A stretch of 64,000 nucleotides of DNA from Chiloscyllium plagiosum (GCF_004010195.1 NC_057749.1:7337416-7401415), one strand, 5' to 3'. Positions 929-56,730 are shown, counted from the first letter of the stretch. Numbers and translations: made by a program. The notes: generated by a model not told the origin, from the letters alone.

Positions 929-2911
929 AGAAAGGTAGGACTGCAGATGCTGGAGGTCAGAGTCAAGAGTGTGGTGCTGGAAAGACACAGGTCAGGCAGC
1001 ATCCGAAGAGCTGGAGAATCGATGTTTTAGGCATCGGCCCTTCATCAGGAATGAGGCTTGTGGGCCGGGGCGCTCAGAGATAAATGTGAGGGGGATGGGG
1101 CTGGGAGGAAGGTAGCTGAGAATGCGATAGATGAATGAAGGTGGGGGAGAAGGTGATAGGTCGGAGAGGAGGGTGGAGCGGATAGATGAGAAAGATGATG
1201 GACAGGTCAAGAGGGCATTGCCAAGTTGGAAGCTTGGGACTGGGATAATGTGGGGGGAGGGGAAATTAGGAAACTGGTGAAATCCATATTAATCCTGTGT
1301 GTTGCAAAGTCCCAAGGCGGAAGATGAGGCATTCTTCCTCCAGGCGTCGGGTGTTTAAGGGTTTGGCGATGGAGGAGGCCCAGAACCTGCATGTCCTCGG
1401 CGGAGCGGGAGGGGGAGTTGAAGTATTCAGCCACGGGGCGATGGGTGCAGGTGTCTCTGAGATGTTCTCTGAAATGATCCGTAAGTAGGCGTCTTGTCTC
1501 CCTGATGTACAGGAGACCAGATCGGGCGCAACAAATGCAATAGTTGACATTTGTGGAAGTCCAGATACATTTCTGTCAGATATGTATCTGGACATATGTA
1601 TTTGGGGCCTTGGTTGGAGATGAGGAGGGAGGTGTGGGCCCAGGTTTTGCACTTCTGCAGTGGCAGGGAAAGGTGCCAAGAGTGGGGGATGGGCTGGTGG
1701 GGGGCGTGGATCTGACAAGATAGTTGCAGAGGAATTGTCTCTCTGGAATGCTGATAGGGGTGGGGAGGGAAATATGTCCCTGGTGGTGGGGTCTGTTTGT
1801 AGGTGGCAGAGGATGATGTGATGTTTACTGAGGTTAGTGGGCTGGAAGATGAAAACCAGTCCTTGTTGCATTGGGCAGGGTGGGGTTCAAGGGGAAGTGG
1901 AGGACATTGCTGGAGATGTGCTGGAGGGTATCATCGACCACATGGGGGGGAAATTGCGATCTTTGAGGAAGGAGGCCATCTGAGATTTTCCAAGATGAAT
2001 TGGTCAGCCTGGGAACAGATGTGGTGGAGGCGGAGGAATTGGGAATAAGGGATGAGATTTTGGTAGGAGTTAGGGTGGGAGGAGTCCAGATAGATGTGGG
2101 GGTCAGTAGGTTTGTAGTAGATGTACATGGTTAGTCAGTCGCCGGAGATGGAGATGAAGAGGTCCAGGAAGGGGAGGGAGGTGTCCAAAATGGTCCAGGT
2201 GAACTTGAGGTCAGGATGAAAACTGTTTGTGATGATGAACTGTTCAAGCTCCTTGTGGAAATGATGTAGCGGAGGAAAAGATAGGAGGTGGTACCAGTGT
2301 AGCTGCAGAAGATGGACTGTTCCACATACCCGACAAAGAGGCAGGCATAGCTGGGGTCTTTATGAGTGCCCATGGCCACCCCTTTGGTTTGGAGGAAATG
2401 GGAGGATTTGAAGGAGAAGTTGTCAAGTGTGAGGACCAGTTCAGCCAGGTGGATGAGGGTGTCAGTGCAAGGGTACTGGTTGGAATGGTATGAGAGGAGG
2501 AAACGGAGGGTTGAAAGACCTTCGTCATTGTGGATAGATGTATACAGGGATTGGATGTCCATGGTGAACATAAGGCATTGGGGACTGGGGAAATGATAGT
2601 CTTGGAGGAGGTGAAGGGTGTGGGTGGTCTCCTGAACGTAGGTGGGGAGTTCCTGGACTAAGGGGACAGGATGGTGTCAAGGTAAGAGTTCAGTGAGACA
2701 GGTGCAGGCTGAGACAATGGGTCAACTGGGGCTGTCAGGTTTGTGAATCTTCGGTTGGAGGTAGAATCGGGCAGTGCGGGGTTCACAGACAATGAGGTCA
2801 GCGGCTATGGATGGGAGATCCGCAAAAGTGATGAGGTTGTGGATGGTCTAGGAGATGATGTCATGATCAAGAGGGCAGTAGGAGGAGGTGCCTGTCAGTT
2901 GGCATTTGGTT
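929..2911 (-). mobile_element. Penelope-like element, decayed (RT + GIY-YIG + pLTR)
   Basis: FTMDIQSLYTSI, GVAMGT, FLRYI, YYKPTD; GIY-YIG-like 'NYCICCARSGLLYIRETRR'; LEEECLIFRLGTLQ; near-TSD tctttg(ag/ga)ctgtgg at about 915-928 and 2912-2925; frameshifted. Confidence 0.9.
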
Positions 2912-3068
2912 TCTTTGGACTGTGGGAGGAAACCAGAACACCCAGCATAAACCCACGCAGACACGAGCAAATGTGTAAACACCACTCAGACAGTCAACCG
3001 CAGCTGGAATTGAACCTGAGTACCTGGCGTTGTGATGCAGCAGCGCTAACCACTGAGCCACCATGCCA
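2912..3068 (-). mobile_element. HE1 V-SINE 5' half
   Basis: tRNA-like head reverse complement gctaaccactgagccacc. Confidence 0.85.
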
Positions 3069-3249
3069 TTGTCCTTCCTGAAAGTGGAGAAGAGGCAGAA
3101 TCAATACAGATATTCAAGAGGGGATGGGTTGTTATCTGAAAAGGAAGAATATAAAGGGTCATCAAGGGAGAAGGTGGGGGAATGACACTGGGTGCATTTT
3201 TGAGCTGAGAGCTAGCACAGGCATGTAGGGCTGTGGTGAAAGATGCTCT

Positions 3250-3535
3250 ATTTACAAGCTTTATCTTGCTTTTAACATAGAAAAACACCCCAAAGTTTCC
3301 TCACAAAAGCATGAACAGACAAAATTAGATGTTGCCACTAAAAAGGAAAAACTAGGGTGATGGGATTGAAAGCATGGTCGGAGAGCTGGTTTATAAGTAG
3401 GATTTTGAAAGAGGCGAAAGAGAAAAAGGAAGAAACAGAGGTTCAGACAGGGAATTCCAGAGTGTTAGGACTAAATGACTGATGTCATGTTCACGGTAGA
3501 ATGAAAAAGATGGGACACAGAAGGGGTTGGTTTCT
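3250..3535 (-). mobile_element. L2-like LINE 3' remnant
   Basis: Degenerate similarity to the L2-like ends at 49190 and 62050. Confidence 0.4.
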
Positions 3536-3539
3536 ATGG

Positions 3540-3752
3540 AAACGGTGGAAGCTGGAAACCTGAAACAAACACAGAACTCACTGGAAAAACTCAGCAGGTC
3601 TGGCAGCATTTCTGTGGAGAGAATTAGAGTTTACGTTCCAAGTCCAGTATGACTGTTCTTCAGAATCTTCATCTCCGGAACAGTCATGCCAGACTCGAAA
3701 TGTGAACTCCACAGATGCTGCCAGACCTGCTGAGTTTCTCCAGCATTCTCTG
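3540..3752. mobile_element. Fold-back PLE pLTR pair, hammerhead family B
   Basis: ctggaaaaactcagcaggtctggcagcat ... atgctgccagacctgctgagtttctccag in inverted orientation. Confidence 0.75.
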
Positions 3753-5116
3753 TCAATGGAACTTGTAGGGATTATAGAGGTGGGAGAGGTTAGGTATAGG
3801 GACAGGTAAGGCCATGAAGAGAATTAAATGAAAGAATAAGAATTTGGAGATTGTAGGAAGTTGTAGAGTGGAAATTGATTGACTTGGCTGCATCAAGTCT
3901 TGACGATTGTAGGAACAATTTCTATGAAAATTGTCCGCTTATTGTTTTCTCAACAACAGGTTTTTAGGGAACTCCAGGTTCCACAACATTCCAAACAGAA
4001 ACTGTGCCGTGAATAACATGTTTGAAACTCCACATGCAGCAAAATTGTAAATATGTTTACAAAGATTTCTCATGATTAGTATTGCTTGCAAAATCAAAGT
4101 TTATGAAACGAACGTCCTGGTGATTTTACCAATAGGAAACAGGCCTGAAAATATTGATGTTGCAGTGATTAGAAACATCCTCCTCAGAAAACCTGCCAAA
4201 CCATTAATTTATTATTTTTAATGTTTATACAATGTTGGTTTATTGACAAGCACCACATATTGATGTATGGAATTGTCAATGAGTCTGTTGTTTTCTCCCT
4301 CTGATGGGCCACAGATCCAAAGGAACACATCAGTTTGTCAGTGATACTGGTGTTCAGTACACCATTTCCAATCTTTCATTGTCTCTTTCTCACTGCATCC
4401 AATTATCCATGAACTCTTATAGTTCTTTGTATTTCTCTGAACTAATGCATTGTCTACAGCACAAAGTGGGTCATATTCCTTTCCAGAATTAATTCACTCA
4501 AGTAACCGTCAACTTGAAAACAGCCTACACATCCAAGCAGTGAATACAAAAACAATTTGGAATCACTTCAGAGACTGTCCAACGCTGCTAATGCAGAGTT
4601 GAAACACTGCATACCTTATTAATCATGCTGACCAGTATTGCTAGTAAATAGAGACAACTGGGCAATTCATTGACAATAGCATCTGTTTCTTTCGGGCTGA
4701 CGTTCCCAGTGCACTGAATGTACCAGGTTTCAATTTCAATGTTGGCAGGGAATGGCTGATTGCAAAAAAACCAGACCTTAAGAAGAATTGAAAGAGAGTC
4801 AGCCTGTACTCCCATTGACTTCCTCAAACATGACTTGGTGTTCAGGTTCTCCAGCCTGACCTCTTGAGTTGGGAGCACTGCTTGAGGCATAAAAGACAAC
4901 CAGAGGGAAAAGCAACAACTCGACAGCGAGAAAGAAAGCTAATACAGAGAAAAATCCAACCTAGAGAACAAGTAAAAATGCCAAGGATACCTATTGCTTG
5001 AGATTTCCTTTTTGCCAATTTCATGGGGAGAGTTTCCACTTTAAATGCAATTCGCAGTTGCATTACTTTTGAGATGGTCTTCCCTCCGTCGTCTTCGCTG
5101 GCATTCATTTAACTAT

Positions 5117-5201
5117 TCCTGAAGAATAGTTAAATGAATAGTTCCTGTTCCCTGGATGCTGCCTGACCTGCTGCACTTTTCCAGCAACACATTTTCAGCC
5201 C
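5117..5201 (+). mobile_element. PLE pLTR mini-insert with 13-bp TSD
   Basis: TSD ttcatttaactat at 5104-5116 and 5202-5214; body ggatgctgcctgacctgctg. Confidence 0.8.
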
Positions 5202-5261
5202 TTCATTTAACTATCTCCACGCACAAAAAGGGTCATCAACCTGCTCTTGGCAAGTATTCGA

Positions 5262-5293
5262 GGCAGCACAGTGGCTCAGTGGACAGCACTGCT
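5262..5293 (+). mobile_element. HE1 SINE head (remainder at 7484-7803)
   Basis: ggcagcacagtggctcagtgg. Confidence 0.75.
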
Positions 5294-5491
5294 AGGTAGA
5301 AACAATGACAGCAGATGCTGGAAACCAGATTCTGGATTAGTGGTGCTGGAAGAGCACAGCAGTTCAGGCAGCATCCGCGGAGCAGTAAAATCGACAATTC
5401 GGGCAAAAGCCCTTCATCAGGAATAAAGGCAGAGAGCCTGAAGTGTGGAGAGATAAGCTAGAGGAGGGTGGGGGTGGGGAGAAAGTAGCAT

Positions 5492-5863
5492 NNNNNNNNN
5501 NNNNNNNNNNNNNNNNNNNNNNNNNNNNNNNNNNNNNNNNNNNNNNNNNNNNNNNNNNNNNNNNNNNNNNNNNNNNNNNNNNNNNNNNNNNNNNNNNNNN
5601 NNNNNNNNNNNNNNNNNNNNNNNNNNNNNNNNNNNNNNNNNNNNNNNNNNNNNNNNNNNNNNNNNNNNNNNNNNNNNNNNNNNNNNNNNNNNNNNNNNNN
5701 NNNNNNNNNNNNNNNNNNNNNNNNNNNNNNNNNNNNNNNNNNNNNNNNNNNNNNNNNNNNNNNNNNNNNNNNNNNNNNNNNNNNNNNNNNNNNNNNNNNN
5801 NNNNNNNNNNNNNNNNNNNNNNNNNNNNNNNNNNNNNNNNNNNNNNNNNNNNNNNNNNNNNNN
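5492..5863. other. Assembly gap (372 N)
   Basis: N run inside the PLE. Confidence 1.
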
Positions 5864-7182
5864 CGTGGACCTGACCAGGTTGTCACGAAGTGAACGGTCT
5901 TTGCGGAAGGCGGAAAGGTGTGGGGAGGGAAATATATCCCTGGTGGTGGGGTCTGTTTGGAGGTGGCGGAAATGTCGGTAGATGATTTGGTTTATGCGAA
6001 GGTTGGTAGGGTGGAAGGTGAGCACCAGGGGCGTTCTGTCCTTGTTACGGTTGGAGGGGTGGGGTCTGAGGGTGGAAGTGCAGGATGTGGACGAGATGTG
6101 TTGGAGGACATCTTTAACCATGTGGGAAGGGAAATTGCGGTCTCTAAAGAAGGAGACCATCTGGTGTGTTCTGTGTGGAACTGGTCCTCCTGGGAGCAGA
6201 TACGGCGGAGGCGGAGGAATTGGGAATATGGGATGGCATTTTTGCAAGAGGTAGGGTGGGAAGAGGTGTAATCCAGGTAGCTGTGGGAGTCGGTGGGTTT
6301 GTAAAAAATGGCAGTGTCAAGTCGATCATCATTAATGGAGATGGAGATGTCCAGGAAGGGGAGTGAGGTGTCAGAGATGGTCCAGGTAAATTTAAGGTCA
6401 GGGTGGAATGTGTTGGTGAAGTTGATGAATTGCTCAACCTCCTCGCGGGAGCATGAGGTGGCGCCAATGCAGGCATTAATGTAGCGGAGGAAGAGGTGGG
6501 GAGTGGTGCCGGTGTAATTACGGAAGATCGACTGTTCTATGTAGCCAACAAAGAGACAGGCATAGCTGGGGCCCATACGTGTGCCCGTGGCTACCCCTTT
6601 CGTCTGGAGGAAGTGGGAGGATTCAAAGGAGAAATTGTTAAGAGTGAGGACCAGTTCGGCCAAACGAATGAGATTGTCTGTGGAAGGGTACTGTTGGGGA
6701 CGTCGGGAGAGGAAAAAACAGAGGGCTTGGAGGCTCTGGTCATGGCGGATGGAGGTGTAAAGGGATTGGATATCCATGGTGAAGATGAGGCGTTGGGGGC
6801 CAGGGAAACGGAAGTCTTGGAGGAGGTGGAGGGCGTGGGTGGTATGTGGGAGTTCCTGGACTAGGGGGGATAGGACAGTGTCGAGGTAGGTAAAGATGAG
6901 TTCAGTGGGTGCAAGAGCATGCTGAGACAATGGGTCGGCCAGGGTGGTCAGGCTTGTGGATCTTGGGAAGGAGGTAGAACCGGGCAGTGCGGGGTTCCCG
7001 GACTATGAGGTTGGAAGTTGTGGGTGGGAGATCTCCTGAGGTGATGAGGTTCTGTATGGACTGGGAGATGATGGTTTGGTGATGCAGGGTGGGGTCATGG
7101 TCGAGGGGGCGGTAGGAAGAGGTGCCCTCGAGTTGGCGTTTGGCTTCAGCGGTGTAGAGGTCAGTGCGCCAGACTACCACTG
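5864..7182 (-). pseudogene. PLE reverse transcriptase pseudogene
   Basis: RFYLLPKIHKP..PGRPIVS, FTMDIQSLYTSI, GVATGTRMGPSYACLF; catalytic YIDD reads YINA; frameshifts near 6905 and 6170. Confidence 0.9.
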
Positions 7183-7254
7183 NNNNNNNNNNNNNNNNNN
7201 NNNNNNNNNNNNNNNNNNNNNNNNNNNNNNNNNNNNNNNNNNNNNNNNNNNNNN
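7183..7254. other. Assembly gap (72 N)
   Basis: N run inside the PLE. Confidence 1.
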
Positions 7255-7483
7255 TCTGGAGGGATGGTGAAAACTCGGCAGGGCTGGGAGCTGGGATCTG
7301 GTGTGGGTGTGGAGCTGGGAGTGGGGGTGGAGCCAGTAACTGGAGTGGGTGTGATGGTGGGGGGAATGGGGGTGGAGTCATGAGCAGGGGTGGTGTTCCC
7401 CTCAGCATTCTGGGGGCCGGGAATGGTGATAGTGGGATCCTGATGAAGGGCTTTTGCCCGAAATGTCGATTTTACTGCTTCTC

Positions 7484-7803
7484 GGTTAGCACTTCTGCCT
7501 CACAACACCAGGGATCCAGGTTCGATTCCAGCCTCAGCCGACTGTCTGTGTGGAGTTTGGCACATTCTCCCTGTGCCTGTGTGGGTCTCCTCCGGGTGCT
7601 CCGGTTTCCTGCCACAGTCCAAAGAAGTGCAGGATAGGTGGATTGGCCATGCTAAATTGTCCATAGCGTTCAAGGATGCGTCGGTTAGGTGAATAAGATA
7701 GGGCTAAATATATGGTATGGAAATTGATCTGGTAGGTTCGTCTTCAGAGGGTCGGTGTGGACTTGTGGCCTGAATGGTCTGTTTCCACATTGTAGGGGTT
7801 CTA
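7484..7803 (+). mobile_element. HE1 V-SINE body
   Basis: B-box ggttcgattcc, V-domain, CR1-like tail. Confidence 0.88.
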
Positions 7804-7841: not shown

Positions 7842-8653
7842 TGTGCTGTGATTGGAACCATGGCCAGGTGGATCTCATTGACTATGAGCTCCTTGATTGG
7901 GGACAGGAGGTTAACCTGCGTCAATCAGGGAGCCCTGGCTGACAGAGATAAACAGGTGATTCAGAAGATCTCCTTAGTCTCAGCTGAAAACAACACATGC
8001 TGGAGATCACAAAGGGGTCAGGCAGCATTCATAGAGAGAGAAAGAGAGCAATCTAACACTTTGAGTCTGAATGACTGCATCAGAGCTGAAGTGAAATGTG
8101 GAGGGGGCAGCATTTGTGCTATCGTTGGCAGGGGGAGGTTAGGGTGGAGAATGCTGGGGGAGAGAAGCTGTTGACAGCTCAGATTAAGTGAGTGGAATGT
8201 GAGAATGGCAGAACAATGGTGTGTCTCTGGCCAGAATTGAAAGGACAGACAATCCCACTGGATGGGGGGTGCAGTGGGGAGGACATGGTAACAGAATGTA
8301 ACAAGCTCAAAGAAAGGGAAGAAATGCTTCACAATCTGAATGTGTTGAAATCAATATTAAGTCCAGAGGGCTGTATAATGCCCAGTCTGAAGATGAGATG
8401 TTGCACCTCCAGTTCATGCTGTGATCCACTGCAGCACCACAGCATGCCAAGGACAGACATGTGGCCACTGTGTTAAAATGACTGGCTATGGGAAGGTCGG
8501 GGTCATACTTGCACACAGACCGGAGGGGTTCCATAAAGCAGTCTCCTCAGTCTAGGGCCTGGCTTTGAGCTGGCTGGTCAGAGTCCATTGGACTGTGCAC
8601 ACGTAAGTAAAGGATGACTTGGTGACGGGATACCATCTTGTGCAGCTATTTCA
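7842..8653 (+). mobile_element. Short solo LTR (about 235 bp) split by a PLE fragment
   Basis: TG...CA ends, TATA-like and AATAAA-like motifs; homologous to 13288-13523 and 39870-40359. Confidence 0.6.
7981..8541 (-). mobile_element. 5'-truncated PLE (GIY-YIG C-terminus + pLTR)
   Basis: PDLPIASHFN and 'HLIFRLG...P.GLNIDF'-like sequence; TSD tctcct(t/c)agtct at 7969-7980 and 8542-8553. Confidence 0.8.
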
Positions 8654-18320: not shown

Positions 18321-20339
18321 CTTTTCCACCAAGATAGTAGGGCTAAAGTGGAACTACCAGCACAAAGAGCAGCTGAGGCAAGAAGCATTGATGCACTGGA
18401 GGGAAATCCAGAAAAGGGCATGAGGGATAAAGAAACTGAATATGGATAGGGTTTGATTTACTAGGCTGGAAGGAAGCACATTTGAAGCATCAACATCAGC
18501 CTGGGTCAGGTGGGCCAAATGGCCTTTTTCTGGGCTATTGACTCTATGTAACATCATGGGTTGGATCTCTGAGACCTTGGGACCATTAAAAATGTGAATC
18601 AGGATGCAGATGTGGATGGTTCAACTCCACTTTTGGACAGGTCAAACATTTGCCAGAGGGCGAAGGACATGATGAGGGAACCCTGAACTCAGCAAGGTCA
18701 TTTTTGGCCAAATGTTGAGTTTGAACAGACTCTGTTTTGGCTGTTGCAAGGGCCTTAGGTTTGGGAGCCACAAATAGACAAATGAAATGGAAATGCCCTT
18801 GAAGGTCATGATCTGAGGTTTTATAAACCTCCTGCTCTTTAAACATGAAGAAACTCAGGTTGGCTATGCCCTGCAGGTCAATTATAACCAGGCTGGTGAT
18901 TGTCAGTAGGTCAGTTTGGGTTCTGTTGAGATATCAGTCCAGAATGTGGACAAGTCCTCCCATCAGTGACACAAAGGGACTTGGATAACAAGAATGCATG
19001 AAATTTAACAGATTATCCAGTGCAGATAATAATTATTTTGCCCAGTGCTGTTCTGTTGTTAACCATTAACATTACTCAGACACAGGTCAATGGCTGTGTA
19101 TAACATCTCTTGGTAATAAATCTCCATTGGATTCTTCAATGCCACAATACTCATGCCCATTTAATGTTGCCAAAATAAAATAAACATTACCGCATCAAAT
19201 AGAATACCCTGCTAGAGGCAAAACTCACATCATATGCTGCTTGACCTGCTGAGATTTTCCAGTTTATCTTCTATTAGCGGTGTTTGTATTTGCTTTCATA
19301 TACCACCCTTTAATGGAGCAAGAAGCCAATGTAGGGTCAGTAGAGTTTTAGATTCGTTTGGAGGATAGGAAACCACCAGGAGAGCCTAGCACAGTCAAGT
19401 GAAGGAAATATCAAGCCCCAGATTTAACAGCAGCTGAAAGGGAGCAGGGACAGATACAGGTAACATAACAGAAGTTGACATAGAGAGTTTTAGCAATGAA
19501 GGGGATGTGGGGTGAGAGTATATTTTAGAAAAGGAAAGCTATGAGCTATTACAAAATGTAAGTCAGTTTAATAAACATTCCAGGTCACAGTAAACAAGAC
19601 TCTCTAACACTACTTAGCAATCTTGAACAAAAACAAAATCTGCTTGAATTAGCTTTGTATAGGGACAGTCCTCACTGGTTGATGAGTTCTGGTACTGAGA
19701 GACTGCTGCTCCCTGAATTTCCAATGGCTAAACCCAGCTCTCAAATTCTCCGTGTCAAAAATCTCAGTATTCTTTACTATTGTGGCCCTGGACTGTATTA
19801 ATGGAATAAGGCAGTTCGACTCAGCAGCATAGAAGTTAGGAATTAAGTCTTGTGCTGCTAATATCACTCTTCAGGTTAACAGAGCCTGAACTGAAACAAC
19901 TGGTGCATTTTATAAGAATTTATTCACCACATTGCATTATCTGTGAAGTTTCACACATTCTTGTTATATAAGTCCCATTCAAAATTGAAATGTTTTCCTG
20001 ATAGCATAACTCCAAAGAGGTGCCTCTTGTACATGAATAATGGTCAAGTTGCTTAACCTCTGACTTGGTGAGCCTTGCAGTATTTATACTGACTTATGCT
20101 GGTTTGAAATTTCAGAGTTTTCTAACAAGATTGTCAGAAAAGTTAAATGCAACTTTTAACGGCAACAGAACACTCATGAGAATAACTGCATTTCCAGGTC
20201 TTGCTTCTGGATAAGTGCTCAGTTTTAAAATGGCTGTTCTCATTTCCAAATCCTTATTTCTCTAATCTCTAATCTCCTCCACAGTCTCTGCAATTAGCCA
20301 ATTCTAGCCTCTTGAGCATGATGGGAGATGGGGCAATTG

Positions 20340-22692: not shown

Positions 22693-23453
22693 GTTGTACA
22701 GCAAAGCAACATGCTCCGAAACAGTCCATTCCAAAGGTGCAGGTCCCAGATTTCAGAGGTCAAAGTGGCAATCACGAAACACAAGCAGCAATGAACTTGA
22801 GCTGCCTCTGTGAGGAGCACTGATAATATCACATAAGGGACTAAGCCTACTAAAGTGCCCGTTAAAGCAGTCCAACATCAATCAATGCCACGTGCATCCA
22901 TAACATTCAGAGATGGTAAGATGTTAAATATATAAGCTTTCCTTCATTGCTGCCAGAATGTGAAAAATATCCACAAATTGTTCCTCCAGGAGTAATAAAT
23001 ACTCATTACTTTACCTCTCCTGCATTTTATGTGGCTTCATAAACCTTTGCATTTTAATAACAATAATAGTGAGGAATTGATTCAATGGAATTATTGCAGA
23101 CATCTGCTCATGAACTGCAGTGACCTCAGTCAGAATTACTCTTCTAACCTATTCCAAAGTAATAGAAACATTTCTTTCCCCCTCCCAACACATCAGGTTC
23201 CCTGAAAGCTTAAACAACTTCACTCAGCTGTAAATCACCAGACAGCTCGAATTTACACCTGACATCTGAGGAATACTTCTCATTCTCAGCTTAAAGTATT
23301 TTTTTCTCTCCCCAAGAAAAGATGGCCCTTTGGAATATCTTCCCTGTTGGGGCTCTGTCAGTACCTTGATATGAGTTTCAATGGTTTCTCATTTCAATTT
23401 ACACCTTGCTCAGTGCTTTTAGACTTCAAACGGGACAGCAGTTAAGGGTCCTA

Positions 23454-23586
23454 GGAGCAAATTACTGCAGATGCTGGCATCTGTACTGAAAACAAGAAAA
23501 GATTCAAGTCTACACTCAAAACGTTAGCTTACTCTCTCTCCATGGATGCTGCCTGACCCACTGTGATCTCCAGCATTTGTTGTTTT
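23454..23586. mobile_element. Fold-back PLE pLTR remnant
   Basis: TSD cagttaag(ggt/tga)ccta at 23439-23453 and 23587-23601. Confidence 0.65.
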
Positions 23587-24234
23587 CAGTTAAGTGACCT
23601 ATTTCCTTTTAACAGATGTCCACTACCCTTTGCTGAGTGCCCACAATTATATACCAGGGAAAATGATTGGCCTTGCAAAGTTAAAAAATACTTACAACAA
23701 GCTCTCTGAGGTCTTCCTTTTTAATTTCCTTTTCTTTAACTCCATTTAAATCAATCCCACGTTGCTTTCAGGCCAGCAGAACAAAGTTTGGAAAGCCTCT
23801 TGTGATGCCTAACTCCAGAAGTAGGATTGGTTTATGAAAAAAATAATCTCCGCACTGCCCAAGAGGTTTGATTCCTTACTCTAACTCTCAGAGCTCATTA
23901 TAAATCTCCTCACCTGCACCGTGGCTCAGTGGTAATTACTCTTCCAGTTGTAGCACTGAGCTTCACAGATCCCAGGTATAATCCCCAATCTGTGCTCTGT
24001 AAGGTCACACTAATCTGGCTTGGGTCCCTGAGCTAGGTGGAAAGCAGCCAGGGTTCCATCGCACTCTCCGAGAGAACCAAGCTGTGCTCCTCTCAAACCA
24101 CTCTTCACTGAACATATCCAAGGAGACAATTCGGACCTCTCGAGGCAAGTCAAAGATGAAAGTAGATGAAAAGACTTTGGGCTTTTCGAGGGTTGACCTT
24201 ACAGAGTACCAGTCGGAAACAAAATTAAGAGAAT

Positions 24235-24670
24235 AAGACATGGGGTTTGAAATTAGGGGCACGTTTAATTAAATGTACCAATATTAGCAATAAACTTCCA
24301 GATTTAAGATAAATCTGCGACTCACTGCCTGTAAAGATGGTAGAGGTGGACACCCTTGTATGTTTTAAGAAGAAATTAGACGTGTATTTTGTCATGGGGC
24401 GGAAGTGGATACTGCAGATGCTGGAGATTAAAGTCAAGATTAGTGTGGTGTTGGAAAAGCACAGCAGGTCAGGCAACATCTGAGGAGCAGGAAAATCGGC
24501 ACATTGGCAAAAGCACTTCATCAGGAAGCCCTTCATATTTTGTCATGCCAAGGGATACAAGGCTACTGGCCAAGTGCTGGAAAATGGGATTAGAACAGTA
24601 TGGTGATTGTTTCTGAGCAGCACAGTCTTAATGGGCTGAAGGGCCTTTCTCAGTGCTATAGACCTCTCGG
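24235..24670 (+). mobile_element. CR1 3' end split by a pLTR
   Basis: Degenerate CR1 C-terminus and tail. Confidence 0.6.
24397..24535 (-). mobile_element. PLE pLTR insert, hammerhead family A
   Basis: Perfect 12-bp TSD tattttgtcatg at 24385-24396 and 24536-24547. Confidence 0.85.
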
Positions 24671-26441: not shown

Positions 26442-26845
26442 TCATAGAACCCTTACAGAGTGGAAGCAGTCCATTCAGCCCAGTCTACACCAACCCTCTG
26501 AAAGAGTATACCACTCAAACCTGTAACACTGCATTTTCCCAGTCTGCACATCCCTGGACATGATAGACAATTTAGCATGGTCAATCGAGGAGAATCCTGA
26601 AGAAGGGCATGTGCCCGAAACGTCGAATCTTCTGTTCCCTAGATGCTGCCTGACCTGCTGTGCTGTTCCAGCAATAAAGTTTCAGCATGGTCAATCGCCC
26701 AACCTGCACACCTTTGGACTATGGGAGGAAACCGGAGCTCACCCAGGGAGAATGTGCAAACCCAACACAGCTAGCCACCCGAAGGTGGAATCAAACGCAG
26801 GTCCCTAGCACTGTGGGGCAGCAATGCTAACCACTGAGCCACTGT
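26442..26845 (-). mobile_element. HE1 V-SINE interrupted by a hammerhead insert
   Basis: HE1 reverse complement on both sides of 26588-26683. Confidence 0.85.
26588..26683 (+). ncRNA. Minimal type I hammerhead ribozyme (PLE pLTR) in a 96-bp insert
   Basis: ggagaatc-CTGAAGA-a-gggc(atgt)gccc-GAAA-CG-TC-gaatcttc; perfect 14-bp TSD agcatggtcaatcg. Confidence 0.75.
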
Positions 26846-27091
26846 TTATTTATAGTGCACATTAATGCCAGTTAATGGGCACTTGGTTGCAGGTCATTAA
26901 AAACACTTACTCAATTTCTTTCAATTCACCTAATGCCTTTGATAAAGAAACAAAATGTCAAAAGATCCACATATTGAAAGATTGACCAGACTCAAAGGTT
27001 GAATAGTCTGCTCCTGTTATATTGCTTTGTAGGTTCAAGTTAACTTCCTTCTCCCAGAACATAGAACAAACAGTGGAGATAAAAGTGTTAA

Positions 27092-27328
27092 AAACCAAAA
27101 GAACTGCAGATTCTGTAAATCAGAAACAAAAACAGAAATTGCTGGAAAAGCTCTGCAGGTCTGGCAGCATCTGTGAAGAGAAATCAGCATTAAAGTTTCT
27201 GGTCTGGCCATTCTTCTTCAGAACCATTCTGAGGAAGGGTCACTGGACCCAAAATGATAACTTGGATTTCTCTTCACAGATGCTGCCTGACCTGCTGAGC
27301 TTTTCCAGCAACTTCTGTTTTTGTTTCT
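27092..27328. mobile_element. Fold-back PLE pLTR pair, hammerhead family B
   Basis: CTGAGGA-a-gggtc(actg)gaccc-aAAA; perfect 14-bp TSD gataaaagtgttaa at 27078-27091 and 27329-27342. Confidence 0.85.
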
Positions 27329-27516
27329 GATAAAAGTGTTAATCTGTTTGTTTAACGATGCAATGGTTAACCCATGTGTCGCAGCTTTGGAATCAGGGAA
27401 GATTTAATTTCTATCTTCAAAGATTAAATGTTTCCCTATTTCACCTGTATTTCTCCATCTTGATATTGAAACTGCTGTACCTTTAAAAGTGGCCTTCTTC
27501 ATAAGCAGTGGCATGA

Positions 27517-30965: not shown

Positions 30966-31319
30966 TGACGGGAGAGGGTGGAAGACAATATAACTGGGTT
31001 GGCAGGGCACCATGGGGTATGCTCTTCGCTGCTACAGGACCATCATTACTGATGATGTTGGCTGTTTTCTGCTGCATCGTTTAGTTTGGAAATGTGCAGA
31101 CATGCCAACTGTTAGCAGACCATTTGTAATTAAGAGTAAGGAGGTAAAACAAGACAAAGCCTTTTTCTCACCCCGCCCACTGCAAATGAGGGTTATTGCA
31201 GCATGGCGTGAGTTGCTTTTTTGTTGAGGTAAGAATGGCAGGGTGAACTTTCGAAACACAGCAAAGTGCACAGCCACAAGGAGTTAACGGGGCTACAGTT
31301 TTGGTTGTGGAGTACTCCA

Positions 31320-31544
31320 GGAAAGTGAGCACTGCAGATCCTGGAGAGTCAGTGTTGAAAAGTGTGCCACTGGAAAAGCACAGCCGGTCAGGCAGCATCC
31401 GAGGAGCAGGAGAATTGACGTTTCGGGCATATGCTCTTGATCGGGAATATCTGACGAAAGGCTTATACCGGAAACATTGACTCTCCTCTTCCTCGGATGC
31501 TGCCTGACCGGCCGTGCTTTTCTAGTAGCACACTTTTAGACTAA
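31320..31544. mobile_element. Fold-back PLE pLTR pair, hammerhead family A
   Basis: Perfect palindromic 12-bp TSD tggagtactcca at 31308-31319 and 31545-31556. Confidence 0.88.
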
Positions 31545-31577
31545 TGGAGTACTCCACCAAACAGCCTGTGCAGCCAC

Positions 31578-32399: not shown

Positions 32400-32570
32400 T
32401 CAAATCAAAATACTGCGGATGCTGTCAACCTGAAACAAAAGCAAAACATTCTGGCGATACTCAGCAGGCCTGACGGAATCCCTGGAAAGAGGAACAGAGT
32501 TAGCATTTCTTCAGAAGAAGAAACCATTCCAAAAGAAAGCCATATCCGACTCGAAATGTTAACTCTGTTT
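32400..32570. mobile_element. Fold-back PLE pLTR remnant, family B
   Basis: aatactgcggatgctg...gactcgaaatgttaactctg. Confidence 0.6.
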
Positions 32571-33243
32571 ATTTTTTAAAATTCATTTATTCACTGGATG
32601 AATGCATTGCTGTCTGGGTCAGCATTTATAGCCCATCCCGAGCTGTCCCTCAGAAGGTGGTGAACTGCCTATCCAGGTCACTAATCCCCCCTGGGAAAGG
32701 AAATCTGACAATCATGTTTGGTCTGGTCTCCATGCAAGGACATCTATCAAATAACAACAGAACCTTACCTTAATCCCCGAGAGTGCAGGACATGTTAGGT
32801 TCAAGATTAATCTGGAGGTAACCGACTTCAATGAACCTCCTAATGAATCTAATCATTTAAGTCATGTTGAGTTGTTTATAATGAATAGTTTTTTGTATAA
32901 TTAAAAAGTGGTGTGGAAGATGATTGCGCAATCAATTATACACTACACCTAATCATTATAATAGGTGAGAAGGCTTTTCCATTGAAATTACATTGTCTGT
33001 TAAATTTCCAATTTTTTTTTGAAGAGTTGTTCTTGAAAATTTAAAGCTGGATAACAGTTATTTGGGTCAATTGAGGTGCTGTGTTCAGTAAGATCATCAA
33101 ACCTGGGACCTGGTTTTCCTTTATCCAATTGTGATATTACTTATCCAAGCTAGCATTGTGCTCTGGTAATTGTTTTCAACACCAGAATCCCCAGGATAGT
33201 GGCTTTTAGGTGAGTCTTATCTTCATCAGATATCATGTACTAT

Positions 33244-33480
33244 TGTGGAAGAATGTTGCGCTGGAAAAGCACAGCAGATCAGGCAGCATCTGAGGAGCAG
33301 GACAGTCAACGTTGCAGGCATAAGCCCTTCATCAGGAACGGGGGGGGGCGGATTCCTGATGAAGGGCTTATGCCTGAAATGTTGACTCTCCTGCTCCTTG
33401 GATGCTGCCTGACCTGCTGTGCTTTTCCAGCAACACACTCTCGACTCTGATCCCCAGCATCTGCAGTCTTCATTTTCCCC
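33244..33480. mobile_element. Fold-back PLE pLTR pair, hammerhead family A
   Basis: cccttcatcagg / cctgatgaaggg head to head; TSD tatca(tg/ca)tactat. Confidence 0.88.
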
Positions 33481-33634
33481 TATCACATACTATAGCAAAG
33501 AGAGTTCAGTACATTATGCTTGGTCACCATTGTCCTTGGTTTTACTGAAAAGTAACTTTCTAAGTTCAGTTTAGTGATTTTTCCTTGTTGTTAAGAATGG
33601 AGTTTCAAGATTTTGAGCCAGTGACCATGAATGG

Positions 33635-37735: not shown

Positions 37736-37783
37736 GTGCTGTCAATTCAATAGCTGGCTTACAGTCAGACTAGATTGACATGT

Positions 37784-37927
37784 TGCTTCTGATGACTCAT
37801 TCCTCATGAAGAGCTTATGCCCGAAACATTGACTCTCCTGCTCCTCAGATGCTGCCTGACCTGCTGTGCTTTTCCAGCACTACATGTTTTGACTCTGATC
37901 TCCAGCAGTTACAGTCCTCACTTTCTC
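37784..37927 (+). mobile_element. PLE pLTR insert, family A (core mutated to CTCATGA)
   Basis: TSD ctag(a/t)ttgacatgt at 37770-37783 and 37928-37941. Confidence 0.8.
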
Positions 37928-39869
37928 CTAGTTTGACATGTCAGTTTAACATGACTTTTAGCCTTCTCTGCCACTGTACTCCAATTCAATAGAGTCCTTC
38001 GTGGAAGAAAATTGGAGGATGGAAAATATTTTTTTTGGCTGGTTTTAAACTATTTGTTTTTCTTACAGGAGATGAGTTAGATTTGCACACACTTCCAGGA
38101 CCTCTTGGGTGCCAGTACCCAAACAGATCAGCAATGGTGCTACTGAGTGACAGAACGGGCTTGAAAGGCTGAATAGCATACGTCTGCTTCTAACCTGTAG
38201 GCTCAATAAAACCTACTAGAAAATCCTGGCCACCAGTGACTTGGAACTTGCTCATGCTGCATGTGCAATCCAATCAGAACACTGTGAGAGGGCACTGCAG
38301 CCATGCACAACTCCAGGCAGTACATGACTCACATGCACACTTGGACTGATGGATGTAATTGATGGGACGGTGAGGTGATTTGGTTGGTGGTGGTAGAACA
38401 GGAACAAAATGAATCACTCTTTGTTCATTGTACACGTTTTTGGCTTGCAGGCACAATGGAAATTGCAACATGCCAGCAAGCTGAAATAAATGGCTGACTC
38501 TCGCAAGGCTCCTGCAGTGGACTGAGATAGATTTCACATGTTTTTTCACCCATGTCGGGGGGAGAGGGGGGGGGGGGGGGGGAATCTTCCAGGGAGAATT
38601 GGTCGATCAGCATAATAGAAGGCATTTTCCCAACTGTCCACCTTTTATTATAGCCAGGTCCATGAAACAAAGGGGGATGTATTCCACTTGTCATGATTCC
38701 CAAATCACAGGCAGCACAAAATAATGGTCCATAAAAGCAAGGTTTGTCAGGAAGGAACTCAATAAGGGATTCAGGACCATTTTTTTAATTCAAGAGTCCA
38801 ACGAGAACTTGGAGTTCGCAGCTGTGTGGGATGAGCAAGATGATTGACGTATATAGAATTAGGTAATTTTACAATAGAGAAGGAGGCCATTTGACCCAAT
38901 AAGTCTGTACTGGCTCCTGAAAGCATTACCCAGCTGGTCCACTCTCTAACCCTCTCCACATCGTCCTTTTGAAAGATACTTCCAGCATATGCAAGGGAAT
39001 CTAGATGAGAACATGAGGGAGGAGGAAATGGAAGGAAATGGCAATGGTGAGGTAGGGGTTGGTGGAAGAGAGAGAGAGAGATTCACATGGAGGACAAACA
39101 CTGATACAGACTGCTATTGTGGTGGTGAGTCTTAGAAGAGGTGTGATTTTCCACAGTGCTTAAGAGAGGTTGCTGGAGTCTGAAGTATTTTCAAGATCAC
39201 TGATCATTCAACATTCGATGAACAATTTATACACTTGGATGTCAAATAAGGTCAACACAGCGGCATCTCCCACTGGAGCCTCTCCATCCTGCAACCTCTT
39301 TCATCATTATTGACGTAACTTACGTTTTCAGTATTAATCCTTTACACTACACAGTCCGGCATGGACCACAATCTGTTTCTGTGCTAAAAGGCTCAAAGCA
39401 ATTCTATTAAAATTAGAACTTGGCCAATTCAAGACAGATAGCACCTCTTCACACAATGGAAAACAAAAATGAGATTTCCCTCTTGAGAAACTGATGCTGT
39501 TGCCAGGTCAATTGAAAATTTCAGGTCTGATGTCCCAGAAGGACAAGACAAACAGTAAAGCAGGCAAGTGATACATACTGGGCTGACTCATCATGTATAC
39601 TTTAAGTGGAGGATTATTTCCTTGCACTACTTTATTTCTCTACTGGTTTTTCCCTCTGGAATTGATAGATTTTTGTTTGGCAAATGCTTCAAGGAACATT
39701 AACAAATTGTTCGCCATCTTACTGATCATATCAAAGAGTTGAAGGGACAGCAGGCAGAACATGTTAGCTCAAACGCTAAGGTCTGTGAAAAATATCACCA
39801 ATGTGTAACAGGGCTCAACAGAAAATTAGGTGGAAAATTAGGCATGTTTACTGAGAAAAAAGGAATTTT

Positions 39870-42397: not shown

Positions 42398-43132
42398 TGA
42401 TTTACCAGGGTATGGAAGGTTCCAGTTATGATGAAAGGATGGATAGTCCGTGATTTTTTTTCACTGGAGCGAAGAAGCTTAAGGGGTGACCTTACAGAAG
42501 TTTATAAAATCATGAGGGGTATAGATAGGGTTAATAGGATGTGTCTTTTCCCTGGGATGGGGGAATTTCAAAACCAAGGAGCATACTTTTAATTCCTGAT
42601 AATTCCTGATGAAGGGCTTTTGCCCGAAATGTCGATTTTCCTGTTCCTTGGCTGTTGCCTGACCTGCTGTGCTTTTCCAGCACCACTCTGATCTTCAGAA
42701 GAGATTTACCAGGTTGTTGCCAGGAATGGAAGGTTTGAGTGATAAGGAGAGGCTCGATAGATTGGGACGTTTTTCAATGGAGCATGGGAGGTTGAGAGTT
42801 GACCTTGTAGAGGTTTATAAAATACTGAGGAGTATCGATAAGGTGAATGGCAGGTTTCTTTTCCCTAGGGTGGGGGATTTCAAGACAAGGAGGCATATTT
42901 CTAAGGTGAGAAGAGAAAGATTTTAAAAGACATGAGGAATGAACTTCCTGAGGAAGTGGTGGCTGCAAGTATAGTTACAACATTTAAAAGACATTTAGAT
43001 AAGTACATGAATAGGAAAGATTTAGAGGGATATTGCCCAAGTGCAAGCAAGAGGGATTAGTTTAGCTTGGGAGAATGGTTGGCATGGACTGGTTGGACCG
43101 AAGGGTCTGCATCCGTGCTGTATGACTGTATG
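42398..43132 (+). mobile_element. Two tandem CR1 3' fragments separated by a PLE pLTR (42592-42693)
   Basis: QKRFTRLLPGMEGLSDKERLDRLG; hammerhead cctgatgaagggcttttgcccgaaatgtc at 42605. Confidence 0.85.
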
Positions 43133-44143: not shown

Positions 44144-44306
44144 TACACACAGACACAGACACAACACACGCACACACACACACAGACACACACACACACG
44201 TACACACACAGACACACACACACAGAGACACACAGTCAGACAGACACACACACACATACACATGCACACACACAGACAGACAGACACACACACACATACA
44301 TATGCA
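44144..44306. repeat. Compound (CA)n/(CAGA) microsatellite
   Basis: Seen directly. Confidence 0.95.
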
Positions 44307-46445: not shown

Positions 46446-46474
46446 AGAGAGATGTCTATTTAAGAAAGACATAT

Positions 46475-49580: not shown

Positions 49581-50779
49581 TTTTGTAATGTTATTCAGTG
49601 AACGATCTTTTGTCGTGTGGTTTTGGGCCCACATTGTGCATTTCGGTCCAATACAGGCTATTAGAGCAGAAAGCAACCACAAGAACTATCCTCAAGTTTG
49701 AGTTTCATGATAAAAGTGTTTATGACTAAACTTTAGGACTAAATATTGCATGGCATGGCATTCAGACATATACCAAGGCTCTAATTTTGCAATCACATTA
49801 TTCAAAGGCAATTTGATAAACTCTACTGATGATACAAGTCTATGGGTCCACATCACATGCATCTCTGCATACAATCTGAACGTTCGAATGGACAGACTTC
49901 CATCTTGTGCCCACCTCTCCGTGCAATTCTCTCTTCCTATTGGGCTATTTATACCCAGTGAGAAGCAGCTCCATGACATCATTGCCAAGTTACTCCAGGG
50001 TCCCAAAGCGCTTCAACAATGAAGGCGACTGACAATACCCACCCATCCTACTGCTGCTGGGTCAGATCATGTGTTCTCAGTCTCAGAAATGCCAGTCAGT
50101 TCAACACAATCAAGGGGAAAGCAGTAATTGTCACCCTCAACAGTGATGCCCAATTGCCAAGAGTAAAGGACATATATCTGTTATATATTTGTTTGGCTGC
50201 CCTGATATCAAGCCTGGAAACTGTGCTATATTAGAACTGTACAAAAATGTGCCTGAGAGCAGAGAAGCCTTAAAATTGACCTGAAAAGAAATGAAACTGT
50301 TCCCTTTAGCCTGCAGTGAGCATAGCTTGACAAGCAAATAGTGCTGAGAAAATTCCCCGTCAACCACTGACCTCATGAACTTTACCTTAGCAATGGTACT
50401 CCAGCATTAAATTCCTATGGGTAGAGGCTCAATCATTACTGCACAGCAGATAGTGCCAACTCGCAGATGTCTGGGCTGACCCCTGCACAGGCCAGCTTCA
50501 CCCTTCCAAAGAACGCCTTGAATTTGGAATGAATCTTAGCTCAGCATGAACATTACCAGTTAAAAGGCCGAGTTACTGACACAAAAACAGCATATCCACC
50601 TGCTGGACACAAACGGAGGCTCATTAAACAATGGGTTACAAACCAGAAATGCGTAGAAGCACAATTGGTATTTGCCAACCATATAGTTTCCGCTGTTGCT
50701 CATCCATAGCCAAGCCTGCAGAGCTCATGTGGCACCTATAATTCACCCTGAAATGTGCCCAAGGCTATTTGTGGACTGA

Positions 50780-51069
50780 GTGAGTACTGCAGATACTGGA
50801 GATTAGAGTCAAGATTAGAGTGGTGCTGGAAAAGCACAGCAGGTCAGGCAGCATCCGAGGAGCAGGCAAATCAATGTTTCAGGCAAAAGCCCTTCATCAA
50901 GAATGGAAAATCAACATTTCGGGCAAAAGCCCTTAATCAGGAATGGAAAATAAACGTTTCAGGGGACTTCCTCATTCCTGATGAAGGACTTTTGAGCAAA
51001 ACATTGAATTTCCTGCTCCTAGGATGCTGCCTGATCTGCTGTGCTTTTCCAGCACCACACTGATCTTGA
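50780..51069. mobile_element. Fold-back PLE pLTR with three to four hammerhead cores
   Basis: Tandem minus-strand cores at 50870-50962 plus a plus-strand core at 50977; TSD ctattt(g/c)tgga(c/g)tga. Confidence 0.88.
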
Positions 51070-51379
51070 CTATTTCTGGAGTGACACCACCTTACATTGT
51101 TTGTCCACGTGGAGCTGATTGACGGGATTCGTGTATAACTTAGCTGAGAAATGCCCATAGGAGGTTCAAATAGAATTGTTTGCTTCAGCACTCAGGGTTT
51201 GCTGTAATGTTGGTGACATAGCAGTCATTTCACACACAGCAAGATCCAGAAAACTCGACTAACTAATCGCATTTACTGGCTGGTGTTAGCCACAACATAG
51301 ACAGAACTGTGTGCTTGTCTTAAAATGTGCCACAAATTAATTAACATCTGCTTGAACAGGCAGAAACTCAACTCAGACA

Positions 51380-51585
51380 GTTAGGGCTGCAGATGCTGGC
51401 AGCCAGAATCAATAGATGTGAAGTTGGAAAAACACAGCAGGTCAGACAGCACCCGAGGAACAGAAAAGTCAATGTTTCCAATTGAAACCCTTCATTCTGA
51501 CAAAGGGTTCTGGCACAAAACATTGACTTTCCTGCTCCTCAGATCCTGGTTGACCTGCTGTGCTTTTCCAGCTTCACATCCAGAT
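51380..51585. mobile_element. Fold-back PLE pLTR, family A, degenerate
   Basis: cacagcaggtca ... tgacctgctgtg in inverted orientation. Confidence 0.75.
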
Positions 51586-52860: not shown

Positions 52861-53122
52861 AAAAATGTAGCATGAGCATTTTCCGCAATGGAGACGGGCA
52901 GAGGAAGTACTGTCCAGTTCAAAAATAATATGCTTCAGCTAGTGATGGGTGATAACGCCAGGATTTCTATTCTATTTGAAAATAGGGGAAAGAAGTCAAA
53001 TTTAAATAACAATGAACCTTCACAATGAGATCTGCAGCACTGGATCAGGTCGCATCCCACAATTAAATGTTTGTGCTAGAGAAAATCGGGATACTTGGCA
53101 AAACTCAACTGCAGTAATTGTT

Positions 53123-53232
53123 CACAAACAAAAACAGAAATTGCTGTAAAAGCTCAGCAGGTCCAGCAGTATCTGTGGAGAGAAATCAGAGTTAGCGTTT
53201 TAGGCTGAGTGACCCTTCCTCAGAATTGTTTT
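53123..53232 (-). mobile_element. PLE pLTR insert, family B
   Basis: Perfect 13-bp TSD tgcagtaattgtt at 53110-53122 and 53233-53245. Confidence 0.85.
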
Positions 53233-53666
53233 TGCAGTAATTGTTAATTCCTCTGACTTTTGGCTTTGCTGTTGTCCAAAGTGAGTAATGACGTGGAGGT
53301 GCCAGCGTTGGACTGGGGTGGGAAAGGTTAAAAATCTCAGTGAGTAAGGCAGGCATCCTTCATCTGTCCCATATCCTCAGCCTCATCATAGTCTGTATGA
53401 GTGGGTTATCTTTTGAGGAAAGGCTGGGTTGGTGCACTCAATGTTGGTTAAAAGAGGAGTGGTCATTTAATTGAAATGTAAAAGGATCCTGAATGGTCTT
53501 AAGAAGGTGGACTTAGAAAAGATGTCTCCTGATGTAGAGTCTAAAATTAGGGGTCAGAGGAGAACATTCTTTAATCTCTCAGGGGGTTGAGAGACTTTGG
53601 AATTCTTTATCTTAGACATTCAGTGGACAGTTGATGGTTTGAATATATTTAAGGGGGAGGTCGACA

Positions 53667-54046: not shown

Positions 54047-54049
54047 GAC

Positions 54050-55630: not shown

Positions 55631-55674
55631 ATGCATGCATCATCCCCTTTCACAGATGAGGTAAAGGGAGAGAA

Positions 55675-56050
55675 TGGGAGATGGTCTTTTAGTGATAATG
55701 TCACTGGACTGTAATCCAGAGGCCCAGACTAATGCTCCTGGGGGCATGAGGTCAATGCCCATCATAACTGGAAGAATTTAAATTCAAGCAATCAACATTT
55801 GTAATATCACACTAGTCTCATTAAGAGTGACTATGATAGCTATCATCAATTGGAGTAAAAACCCACTTGGGTCACAAATACCCTTTGTCATGAATACCAG
55901 TCAACCCTACCCAATTTGATGGACATGCAATCCCAGACTGCGATTGATTCTTGAGTGCCCTCTGAAATGTTCTAGCGAGGCAAAGGCAATTCTGGACAGG
56001 AAACAAATGGTAGCCTTGTCACATGCTCCCCATCTCATGAAAGGATAAAG
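55675..56050 (+). mobile_element. SINE family B, old
   Basis: gtcactggactgtaatccagaggcccag head; degenerate body. Confidence 0.6.
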
Positions 56051-56096
56051 AAAAGTCCTTCATTTCCCTTTTGCCTCAATTTGCTGACCGCTAAAA

Positions 56097-56543
56097 TGGA
56101 TGCTGCCTGACCTGCTGCGCTTTTCCAGCAACACATTTTCAGCTCTGATCTCCAGCATCTGCAGACCTCACTTTCTCCTCAAAGATTTGAACGTACTGCG
56201 AATCCTCTTACAAGGATGCCTTCCTTGAAGAAGCTCTCTTCCTCCCTCTACAAATATTTCAGTGAGTCCCTCTCTCACTGCACCCCCCAGGTCTTCTCCT
56301 CTGCACAGAAGCTCTTCAGCCACATTCTCAAACAGACTCGTTACCACAGCCACATCTCCTTCCTCAGCACCTGCCTACGGAACCGATTGATCCCACACGG
56401 ACTCCGGACTCCGTTCCGACCAACAAAACTTGGACCCAACCAGGATTCCTGAAGAAGGGCTTATGCCCGAAACGTCGATTCTCCTGTTCCCTGGATGCTG
56501 CCTGACCTGCTGCGCTTTTCCAGCAACACATTTTCAGCTCTGA
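56097..56543 (+). mobile_element. PLE mini-element: pLTR - ORF N-terminus - hammerhead pLTR (direct repeat)
   Basis: Identical 52-bp repeats at 56097-56148 and 56492-56543; ORF 56216-56452 with HISFLSTCLRNRLIPHGL; TSD ctgacc(g/a)ctaaaa. Confidence 0.85.
56440..56487 (+). ncRNA. Minimal hammerhead ribozyme, intact core
   Basis: caggattc-CTGAAGA-a-gggc(ttat)gccc-GAAA-CG-TC-gattctcctg. Confidence 0.75.
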
Positions 56544-56575
56544 CCACTAAAAGAAGCCTTTCCAAAGCATTAGTA

Positions 56576-56730
56576 AAAACTGAAAGAACTGCGGATGCTG
56601 GAAGTCAGAAACAAAAAGAGAGAAATTGCTGGAAAAGCTCAGCAGATCTGGCAGCATTTATGGAGAGAAATCAGAGTTAACTTTGCGGGTCCAGTGACCC
56701 TTGCTCAGAACTGGTTCCTCCTCAGTTCTG
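56576..56730 (-). mobile_element. PLE pLTR insert, family B
   Basis: Flanked by gcattagta repeats. Confidence 0.75.

Follow-up and report, generated by a model that had tools for sequence, protein, structure and literature searches.

Short insertions of Penelope-like terminal repeats with a nearly fixed 5' end in a 64,000-nt window of the Chiloscyllium plagiosum genome

The DNA analysed here is a window of 64,000 nt from Chiloscyllium plagiosum (NC_057749.1:7337416-7401415), to which all counts refer unless otherwise stated, and which carries Penelope-like elements (PLEs) together with many short units made of their terminal repeat, the pseudo-long terminal repeat (pLTR), with its minimal hammerhead ribozyme. 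Homology to the pLTR was searched with profiles made from the window's own copies, the reversed window serving as control, and was found at 20 loci, the best control match having an E value of 3.8. Three of these loci are long copies (929, 5294 and 7987-8466) and 17 are short (45-443 bp), the latter adding up to 3033 bp, or 4.7% of the window; the density is one per 3.8 kb. A preliminary description of this DNA, made from the sequence alone, had announced about 20 units and was right in both count and coordinates. Each unit is made of the pLTR, which measures 88-135 nt and occurs singly, in head-to-head arrangement or accompanied by short re-copies, and the arms fall into several subfamilies with a mutual identity of 63-89%. 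Positions in the repeat are counted from its first base (+1), which lies four bases 5' of the CTGANGA box in family A, and hammerhead cleavage is predicted after +32. Most arms begin at or close to +1, and the units are, on balance, probably ordinary products of PLE integration from a template that ends early.

The first long copy (929-2911, within 915..2925) lies on the minus strand, is 5'-truncated and broken, and retains a reverse transcriptase (RT), a decayed remnant of a linker zinc finger, which can still be aligned, and a GIY-YIG endonuclease, with a 3' pLTR and its tail; RT and endonuclease were recovered in this order by tblastn. It is inserted within a short interspersed nuclear element (SINE) and is flanked by a duplication (915-928 / 2912-2925) with 12 of 14 bases matching. 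The second (5294-7483, within 5281..7496), likewise 5'-truncated, broken and on the minus strand, contains assembly gaps and a 3' pLTR with tail, and bears at its 5' end an inverted pLTR arm (7436-7483) with an intact hammerhead; its duplication (5281-5293 / 7484-7496) matches at 10 of 13 positions by eye and is not significant by score. The open reading frame (ORF) and the inverted arm of this copy overlap by a 4-nt palindrome (7436-7439), and the PLE-like part of protein P0001 starts at the codon of this overlap, which could be a coincidence, a splice site or a fixed truncation point. The third (7987..8466, minus strand), missing from the preliminary description, is old and of another subfamily, and comprises a divergent pLTR and the endonuclease end. 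The copies at 929 and 5294 had been proposed as the mobilisers of the short units; this is excluded, since both are 5'-truncated and broken, and only their families could have had this role.

The RT at 5992-6999 has 160 long relatives, many of them with PF00078 and some with PF01541, and the protein nearest to it among the named relatives, at 79% identity, carries the label Chiloscyllium punctatum. A linker zinc finger of the form CX2-5CxxC was present in 42 of the 60 long relatives examined (out of 120 fetched); a zinc finger in this place, before the GIY-YIG domain, is given for Neptune and Nematis (Craig 2021, PMC8557442). A Pfam scan of six translations from the window returned RVT_1 below threshold and nothing else. 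The characters of endonuclease-positive PLEs are found here: an RT joined in one ORF to a GIY-YIG domain at the C-terminus, with the linker zinc finger; a pLTR with an optional tail and inverted 5' copies; and a pLTR followed by the start of the ORF, 56216-56416 matching the N-terminus of a 909-aa relative (E value 5e-10). Published insertions of endonuclease-positive PLEs consist of a pLTR, an optional tail of 30-40 bp, an inverted 5'-truncated copy and a short duplication (Arkhipova 2013, PMC3846280; Craig 2021, PMC8557442; Schostak 2008, PMC2377424). The elements are tentatively called Neptune-type, a clade label based on the linker zinc finger and on the vertebrate distribution given in a preprint (10.64898/2026.07.22.740005).

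Short loci with a single arm occur on both strands. On the plus strand lie a young unit with an 85-bp insert and no intact hammerhead (5104..5214), in which a stub (+1..+11) is followed by an inverted copy of the unit's own duplication (5126-5138) and then by an arm from +39; an old remnant arm from about +49 (19231..19275); a tailless arm with an intact hammerhead, inserted within a SINE (26574..26697), whose 5' junction holds 9 nt that are the reverse complement of +33..+41; an arm with tail that runs from -3 and is preceded by a re-copy of about +2..+11 (37770..37941); and, with a re-copy of +1..+9 in front of it, a tailless arm whose hammerhead is intact (42592..42697). On the minus strand lie an arm with tail, in which +9..+16 is re-copied at the 5' junction and the second core box is lost (24385..24547), and a tailless family-B arm (53110..53245).

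Head-to-head pairs include an old pair of family B (3545..3754), an old pair whose centre is mostly missing (23439..23601), a family-B pair with only the left arm tailed (27078..27342), a pair whose arms overlap by 2 nt at +1, again with only the left arm tailed (31308..31556), and a pair with a 13-nt G-rich spacer, in which only the right arm is tailed and has an intact hammerhead (33231..33493). In the pair at 50765..51084, 40-nt tandem hammerhead re-copies occupy the centre (50868-50963), and the tailed arm starts at +1 and the tailless one at -4; in the old pair at 51372..51584, these starts are +8 and about +1, respectively. An arm with tail and a short opposite stub make up the old family-B locus at 32406..32570 and, with a stub of 10 nt, the family-B locus at 56564..56742 (minus strand). 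Lastly, the young unit at 56084..56552 (plus strand) comprises a pLTR from +48 with tail, the start of a PLE ORF (56216-56444) and a second pLTR from +1 with an intact hammerhead; the 50 bases common to its two pLTRs are identical, its direct period is 395 nt and it holds one complete hammerhead. The youngest units, 5104 and 56084, are alike at 57 of 60 bases.

For 28 arms and stubs, the three long 3' repeats being left out, the start was entered manually on the basis of profile alignments and junction readings. Twenty-four of these starts fall within -8..+8, a box of 17 nt, for which a rough binomial probability of 7e-18 is obtained if starts are uniform over 130 nt; arms of one insertion are not independent, and by locus the figure is 15 of 17. 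The 5' ends thus accumulate at +1, where stem I of the hammerhead begins, the remaining four arms starting inside the repeat at +16, +39, +48 and +49, and no start (0/28) lies within 3 nt of the cleavage site (+33). Lost upstream homology does not account for this clustering, because each start has the duplication or the partner arm 0-28 nt from it. Preferred end points are therefore strong, and the smooth distribution of random truncations that the preliminary description had named as evidence to the contrary was not seen. At the other end, family-A arms stop at 88-98 (seven arms) or 124-132 (eight arms). These two classes, around +95 and +130, are separated by about 35 nt, which corresponds to the known tail; +129 lies 117 nt from stem II. 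The tail is found on exactly one arm in all six resolved head-to-head pairs, which would be expected in at most 1 case in 64 if arms chose independently. Furthermore, at 51372 and 50765 the tailless arm extends further 5' than the tailed arm, a geometry that a single folded-back complementary DNA (cDNA) cannot produce and two separately primed cDNAs can.

All ten duplication pairs cited in the preliminary description are present at the positions it gave. Six are perfect, at 5104 (13 bp), 24385 (12), 26574 (14), 27078 (14), 31308 (12) and 53110 (13), and four are imperfect, at 37770 (13/14), 56084 (12/13), 33231 (11/13) and 50765 (10/11, or 13/15 when extended); pairs at 23439 (13/15) and 56564 (11/12) were also found. 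With boundaries taken from profile matches, a score of at least 9 was reached at 11 of the 20 loci versus 10 of 392 random boxes, the pair at 33231 staying below this threshold with a score of 7, which is equalled by 91 of the 392 random boxes. With tighter, partly post-hoc boundaries, a score of at least 8.5 was reached at 12 of the 20 loci, versus 12 of 500 random boxes and none of seven near-full SINE copies. Over 14 pairs, those of 929 and 5294 both included, the duplications measure 11-15 bp with a mean of 13.1, roughly the 12-15 bp reported earlier; they are slightly AT-rich (0.63 vs 0.57), and no target motif is claimed. Their length is common to the short units and to a long copy (929), and plausibly represents the stagger of the endonuclease, an interpretation already put forward in the preliminary description. 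The duplicated target at 31308-31319 is a perfect 12-bp palindrome.

Junctions differ at all 17 short loci, no two of which share one. At five loci the first 9-40 nt of the repeat are re-copied at the junction, and go-back joints from +34..+36 to about +1 occur in contigs of two species; both are the behaviour of a polymerase at a hard template end. The segment 5126-5138 is an exact inverted copy of the 13-bp duplication of its own unit, 5104; it ends at the limits of the duplication, is unique in the window and may record a single-stranded overhang.

Both core boxes and the cleavage triplet are present in 6 of the 15 family-A arms that reach the 5' end, and five of these six have a stem II of at least 4 bp. 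A complete minimal hammerhead (CUGANGA, spacer base, stem II, GAAA, NUH) is thus found in five arms, with a stem II of 4-5 bp, and is decayed in the rest. The pattern used for intactness is that of family A and is unsuitable for family B, in which both core boxes were found in one arm only; in alignments read by eye, stem II differs compensatorily between the two families. Stem I is weak (2-4 bp). The designation of the units as hammerhead-bearing was overstated: the hammerhead is intact at 4 of the 17 short loci (26574, 33231, 42592 and 56084), and in five of the ten loci cited for their duplications (5104, 24385, 37770, 50765 and 53110) part of the core was lost or never present. An Rfam scan found no hammerhead family, minimal hammerheads not being expected to match, and gave two weak microRNA matches, on palindromes; predicted folds of monomer and dimer did not give the active hammerhead fold. 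The stubs were probably dead on arrival.

Contigs from three species (organisms A, B and C) were aligned to 55760-57200, where about 94,000-141,000 contigs per species matched, nearly all of them on repeats; the terminal-repeat family is very abundant, depth being no measure of copy number. At the left edge of the 56084 unit, an organism-A contig runs through the duplication into the insert, to 56122. In an organism-C contig the match ends where the duplication does, at 56096, and 74 letters are left over; in an organism-B contig it ends at 56090, the sole base that differs between the two duplication copies, and 30 letters are left over, which is the distance from the right duplication copy to the next repeat. 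The site is therefore apparently empty in organisms B and C, and the neighbouring family-B unit (56564..56742) is present in organism C. The proposal that the units were inserted as short units is supported by this indirect empty site in two relatives, as well as by the tight duplications and the complex junctions. The tail end forms a sharp edge in the contigs of all three species: at 56179 they have 1209, 1250 and 1070 loose ends (agreement 0.33-0.34), with unrelated sequence beyond. For the loose ends that lie before 56445 (523, 537 and 610 contigs), the low agreement (0.35-0.37) is suggestive only; a genome-wide fixed end was not deduced from them, since at that place the reference has no natural upstream sequence and contigs collapse high-copy sequence. 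Joints from 56179 to 56445, whose intervening sequence is not known, were likewise rejected as tandem units: joints to an unrelated family-B arm are equally frequent (22 vs 26 contigs in one contig set), which suits chance neighbours. Finally, one contig of depth 8000, in organism A only, joins 56301, in the ORF start region, to 56445 (+1), with 22 letters on its short side; as a weak lead, this joint could possibly reflect a species-specific mini-element or satellite of about 252 nt.

The reading that we favour, on balance and by a modest degree of belief, is that the units are ordinary integration products of Neptune-type PLEs from an early-ending template, with +1 as putative transcript start. 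The endonuclease would nick both strands about 13 nt apart, as the duplication length suggests, and each 3' overhang would be able to prime. Reverse transcription would begin at +95 or +130: a start on the 3' repeat of the transcript would yield a long, randomly truncated copy, and a start inside the 5' pLTR would yield a run-off of 95-130 nt, if the RNA starts at +1. One priming would leave a single stub and two primings, at both nicks, a head-to-head pair; one priming of each kind would produce the arrangement seen at 5294, a long copy that carries an inverted repeat 5'. The hammerhead would be carried along uncleaved and would decay afterwards. In the anole element, cleavage of both strands has been shown for the enzyme, uncleaved RNA is the main substrate in vitro, and the tail is the distance between two internal RT starts, 111-118 nt from the start of stem II (Frangieh 2024, PMC11167929); the Drosophila element has an internal promoter within the pLTR and a tail of 34-37 bp (PMC2377424).

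Several observations weigh against this reading. A poly-A single-cell RNA library, of which 2 in 100 reads were read, covers both strands (618 vs 837 reads in the +1 bin) and has no place where many molecules begin or end, such a library being ill-suited to starts and bound to miss circles. The fit of +1 to an initiator consensus is presumed. No convincing duplication is found at six loci, the match being doubtful at 3545 (8/9), not significant at 51372, and absent at 7987, 19231, 32406 and 42592, and the empty site at 56084 is deduced indirectly, from where matches stop. The two arms of a pair are not each other's closest matches by overall identity (ranks 1-9) and share 1-8 derived sites outside CpG, versus means of 1.0-1.5; an origin of paired arms from the same template is thus weakly supported by these comparisons. 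The anole and Drosophila elements have their pLTR or their start site well upstream of the hammerhead (PMC11167929, PMC2377424). The junction at 26574 looks like fold-back self-priming, so that more than one route exists, and palindromes like the head-to-head pairs were read as self-priming by Arkhipova et al. (PMC3846280).

That the units arose simply by random 5' truncation, or as eroded long copies, is very improbable: 5' truncation is normal for such elements (PMC8557442), four of the 28 arms do start inside the repeat and three copies are long, but neither the crowding of the other 24 starts into the 17-nt box nor duplications that abut the units on both sides would result. A direct insertion in which +1 is not the RNA start, the RT stalling at stem I or at a bound protein, or the endonuclease cutting an intermediate at the ATT that opens the pLTR, is unlikely, albeit less so. 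Its attraction is that in families A and B alike the 5' strand of stem I falls at +1 and that jumps from +1 reach +34..+40, which is adjacent in the fold; however, stem I has only 2-4 bp and is absent from the predicted fold, the three long copies were copied straight through +1, and re-copies and untemplated bases before the final join fit a template end better than a clean cut.

Two further readings are both quite improbable. Copies of the full pLTR-ORF-pLTR form, whether or not an inverted pLTR adjoined them, could have lost their middle by recombination between direct repeats, the duplication being kept. The published full structure, with two direct pLTRs, one inverted pLTR and a 9-bp duplication (PMC3846280), would indeed collapse to singles and pairs such as these, and terminal-repeat depth exceeds ORF-start depth about 20- to 150-fold in three species, with the above reservation that depth is no copy number. 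Against it, the window holds no full direct-repeat copy, its long copies being 5'-truncated; the youngest units, 5104 and 56084, are already short, and their junctions (a start at +39 or +48, a jump into the ORF start, an inverted target copy) are not recombination products; and a fixed +1 would still need a cause. The preliminary description had instead assigned the units to a retrozyme-like non-autonomous class mobilised by PLE proteins; in this reading the proteins would act in trans on the class's own RNA, processed by its hammerhead and possibly circular. Retrozymes with a relationship to PLE pLTRs have been reported from vertebrates, one cartilaginous fish among them (bioRxiv 10.64898/2026.07.22.740005), and the 395-nt period of 56084, the 9, 5 and 5 contigs of the three species in which tail and front are cleanly joined and the organism-A contig of depth 8000, with its period of about 252 nt, all point that way. 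For the bulk of the units, however, the assignment fails, since the cleavage site is the start of no arm out of 28, tandems of complete hammerhead monomers occur at none of the 17 short loci (the 40-nt re-copies at 50765 apart), all junctions differ and several subfamilies, 63-89% alike, contribute. Neither head-to-tail hammerhead tandems nor units bounded by cleavage sites, as in non-LTR (long terminal repeat) retrozymes, were found; nor, at the 17 short loci, were dispersed copies with the same junction and length, as in a master-copy family, the 56301-to-+1 contig being a possible exception outside the window. The hammerheads are minimal and mostly decayed, and the stubs are devoid of the region at the ORF start, which the anole protein requires on a template (PMC11167929).

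Compared with known systems, the insertions resemble endonuclease-positive PLEs in their head-to-head inverted pLTRs, one-end tail, duplications, RT with C-terminal GIY-YIG domain and linker zinc finger in relatives; the inverted 5' copy, the one-sided tail and non-autonomous derivatives are described by Craig et al. (PMC8557442). They differ in that most have no ORF, the 5' end is nearly fixed and they occur once per 3.8 kb, and their duplications measure 12-14 bp versus 8-10 bp in the rotifer cases. Cervera and De la Pena (2014, PMC4209133) reported minimal hammerheads that stand alone, in thousands per genome, and are "probably related to truncated PLEs", as well as opposite-strand hammerhead pairs 100-700 bp apart, and the window shares with these metazoan hammerheads the type I core, the unpaired base before stem II, G10.1-C11.1 and the palindromic helix III position; in its accessible text that study does not cover sharks or tabulate duplications and end points, and stem I in the window is weak. 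The anole Poseidon element PAc (PMC11167929) is similar in its two internal RT starts bounding the tail and in their distance from stem II, but belongs to another clade and has a pLTR that reaches well upstream of the hammerhead; neither run-off at the hammerhead front nor two-ended integration is shown in the accessible part of that paper. Retrozymes consist of units in head-to-tail tandem, from which linear and circular RNA of unit length is processed (Cervera and De la Pena 2020, PMC7229834; Li, Clavereau and Pollet 2026, preprint 10.64898/2026.07.22.740005). Like the non-LTR retrozymes, the window units are short, non-coding, hammerhead-containing and related to PLE pLTRs, with duplications longer than 4 bp; unlike them, they are singles or head-to-head pairs whose ends lie off the cleavage site. 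In the accessible text of the whale shark paper (PMC8455134), Penelope is merely listed as present, and a literature search, which did not cover repeat libraries and the supplementary tables of the preprint, returned no report of such stubs, of a fixed front edge or of this density in sharks.

The architecture is therefore largely published, minimal hammerhead, inverted pLTR, tail and duplication each having been described already. The fixed front edge, the rule of one tail per pair and the putatively captured overhang are a useful natural data set for the unsolved mechanism of PLE integration and for the role of the hammerhead. [quoted passage not shown] For annotation, a few percent of such a genome may be stubs, for which the label retrozyme would be wrong. 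A more elaborate model, which we hold only tentatively and consider doubtful as a whole, is two-ended target-primed integration: a PLE dimer would cut with a 13-nt 3' overhang, prime both ends at two internal starts and run off a transcript starting at the first base of the uncleaved hammerhead, so that cDNAs of the strong-stop type, rather than complete elements, would be the main product; 5126-5138 would be a captured overhang, and the minor 252-nt mini-element with the ORF start may be a self-propagating, retrozyme-like family in this species alone.

Other repeats are also present in the window. The insertions with the duplications 915-928, 5281-5293 and 26574-26587 lie within copies of the window's SINE, which we take to be HE1/V-SINE. 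Fragments resembling the ends of long interspersed nuclear elements, presumably of CR1/L2 type, occur at 28926-29782, 59176-59571 and 59853-60502, and long degenerate dinucleotide tracts at 44145-44306 and 55312-55623.

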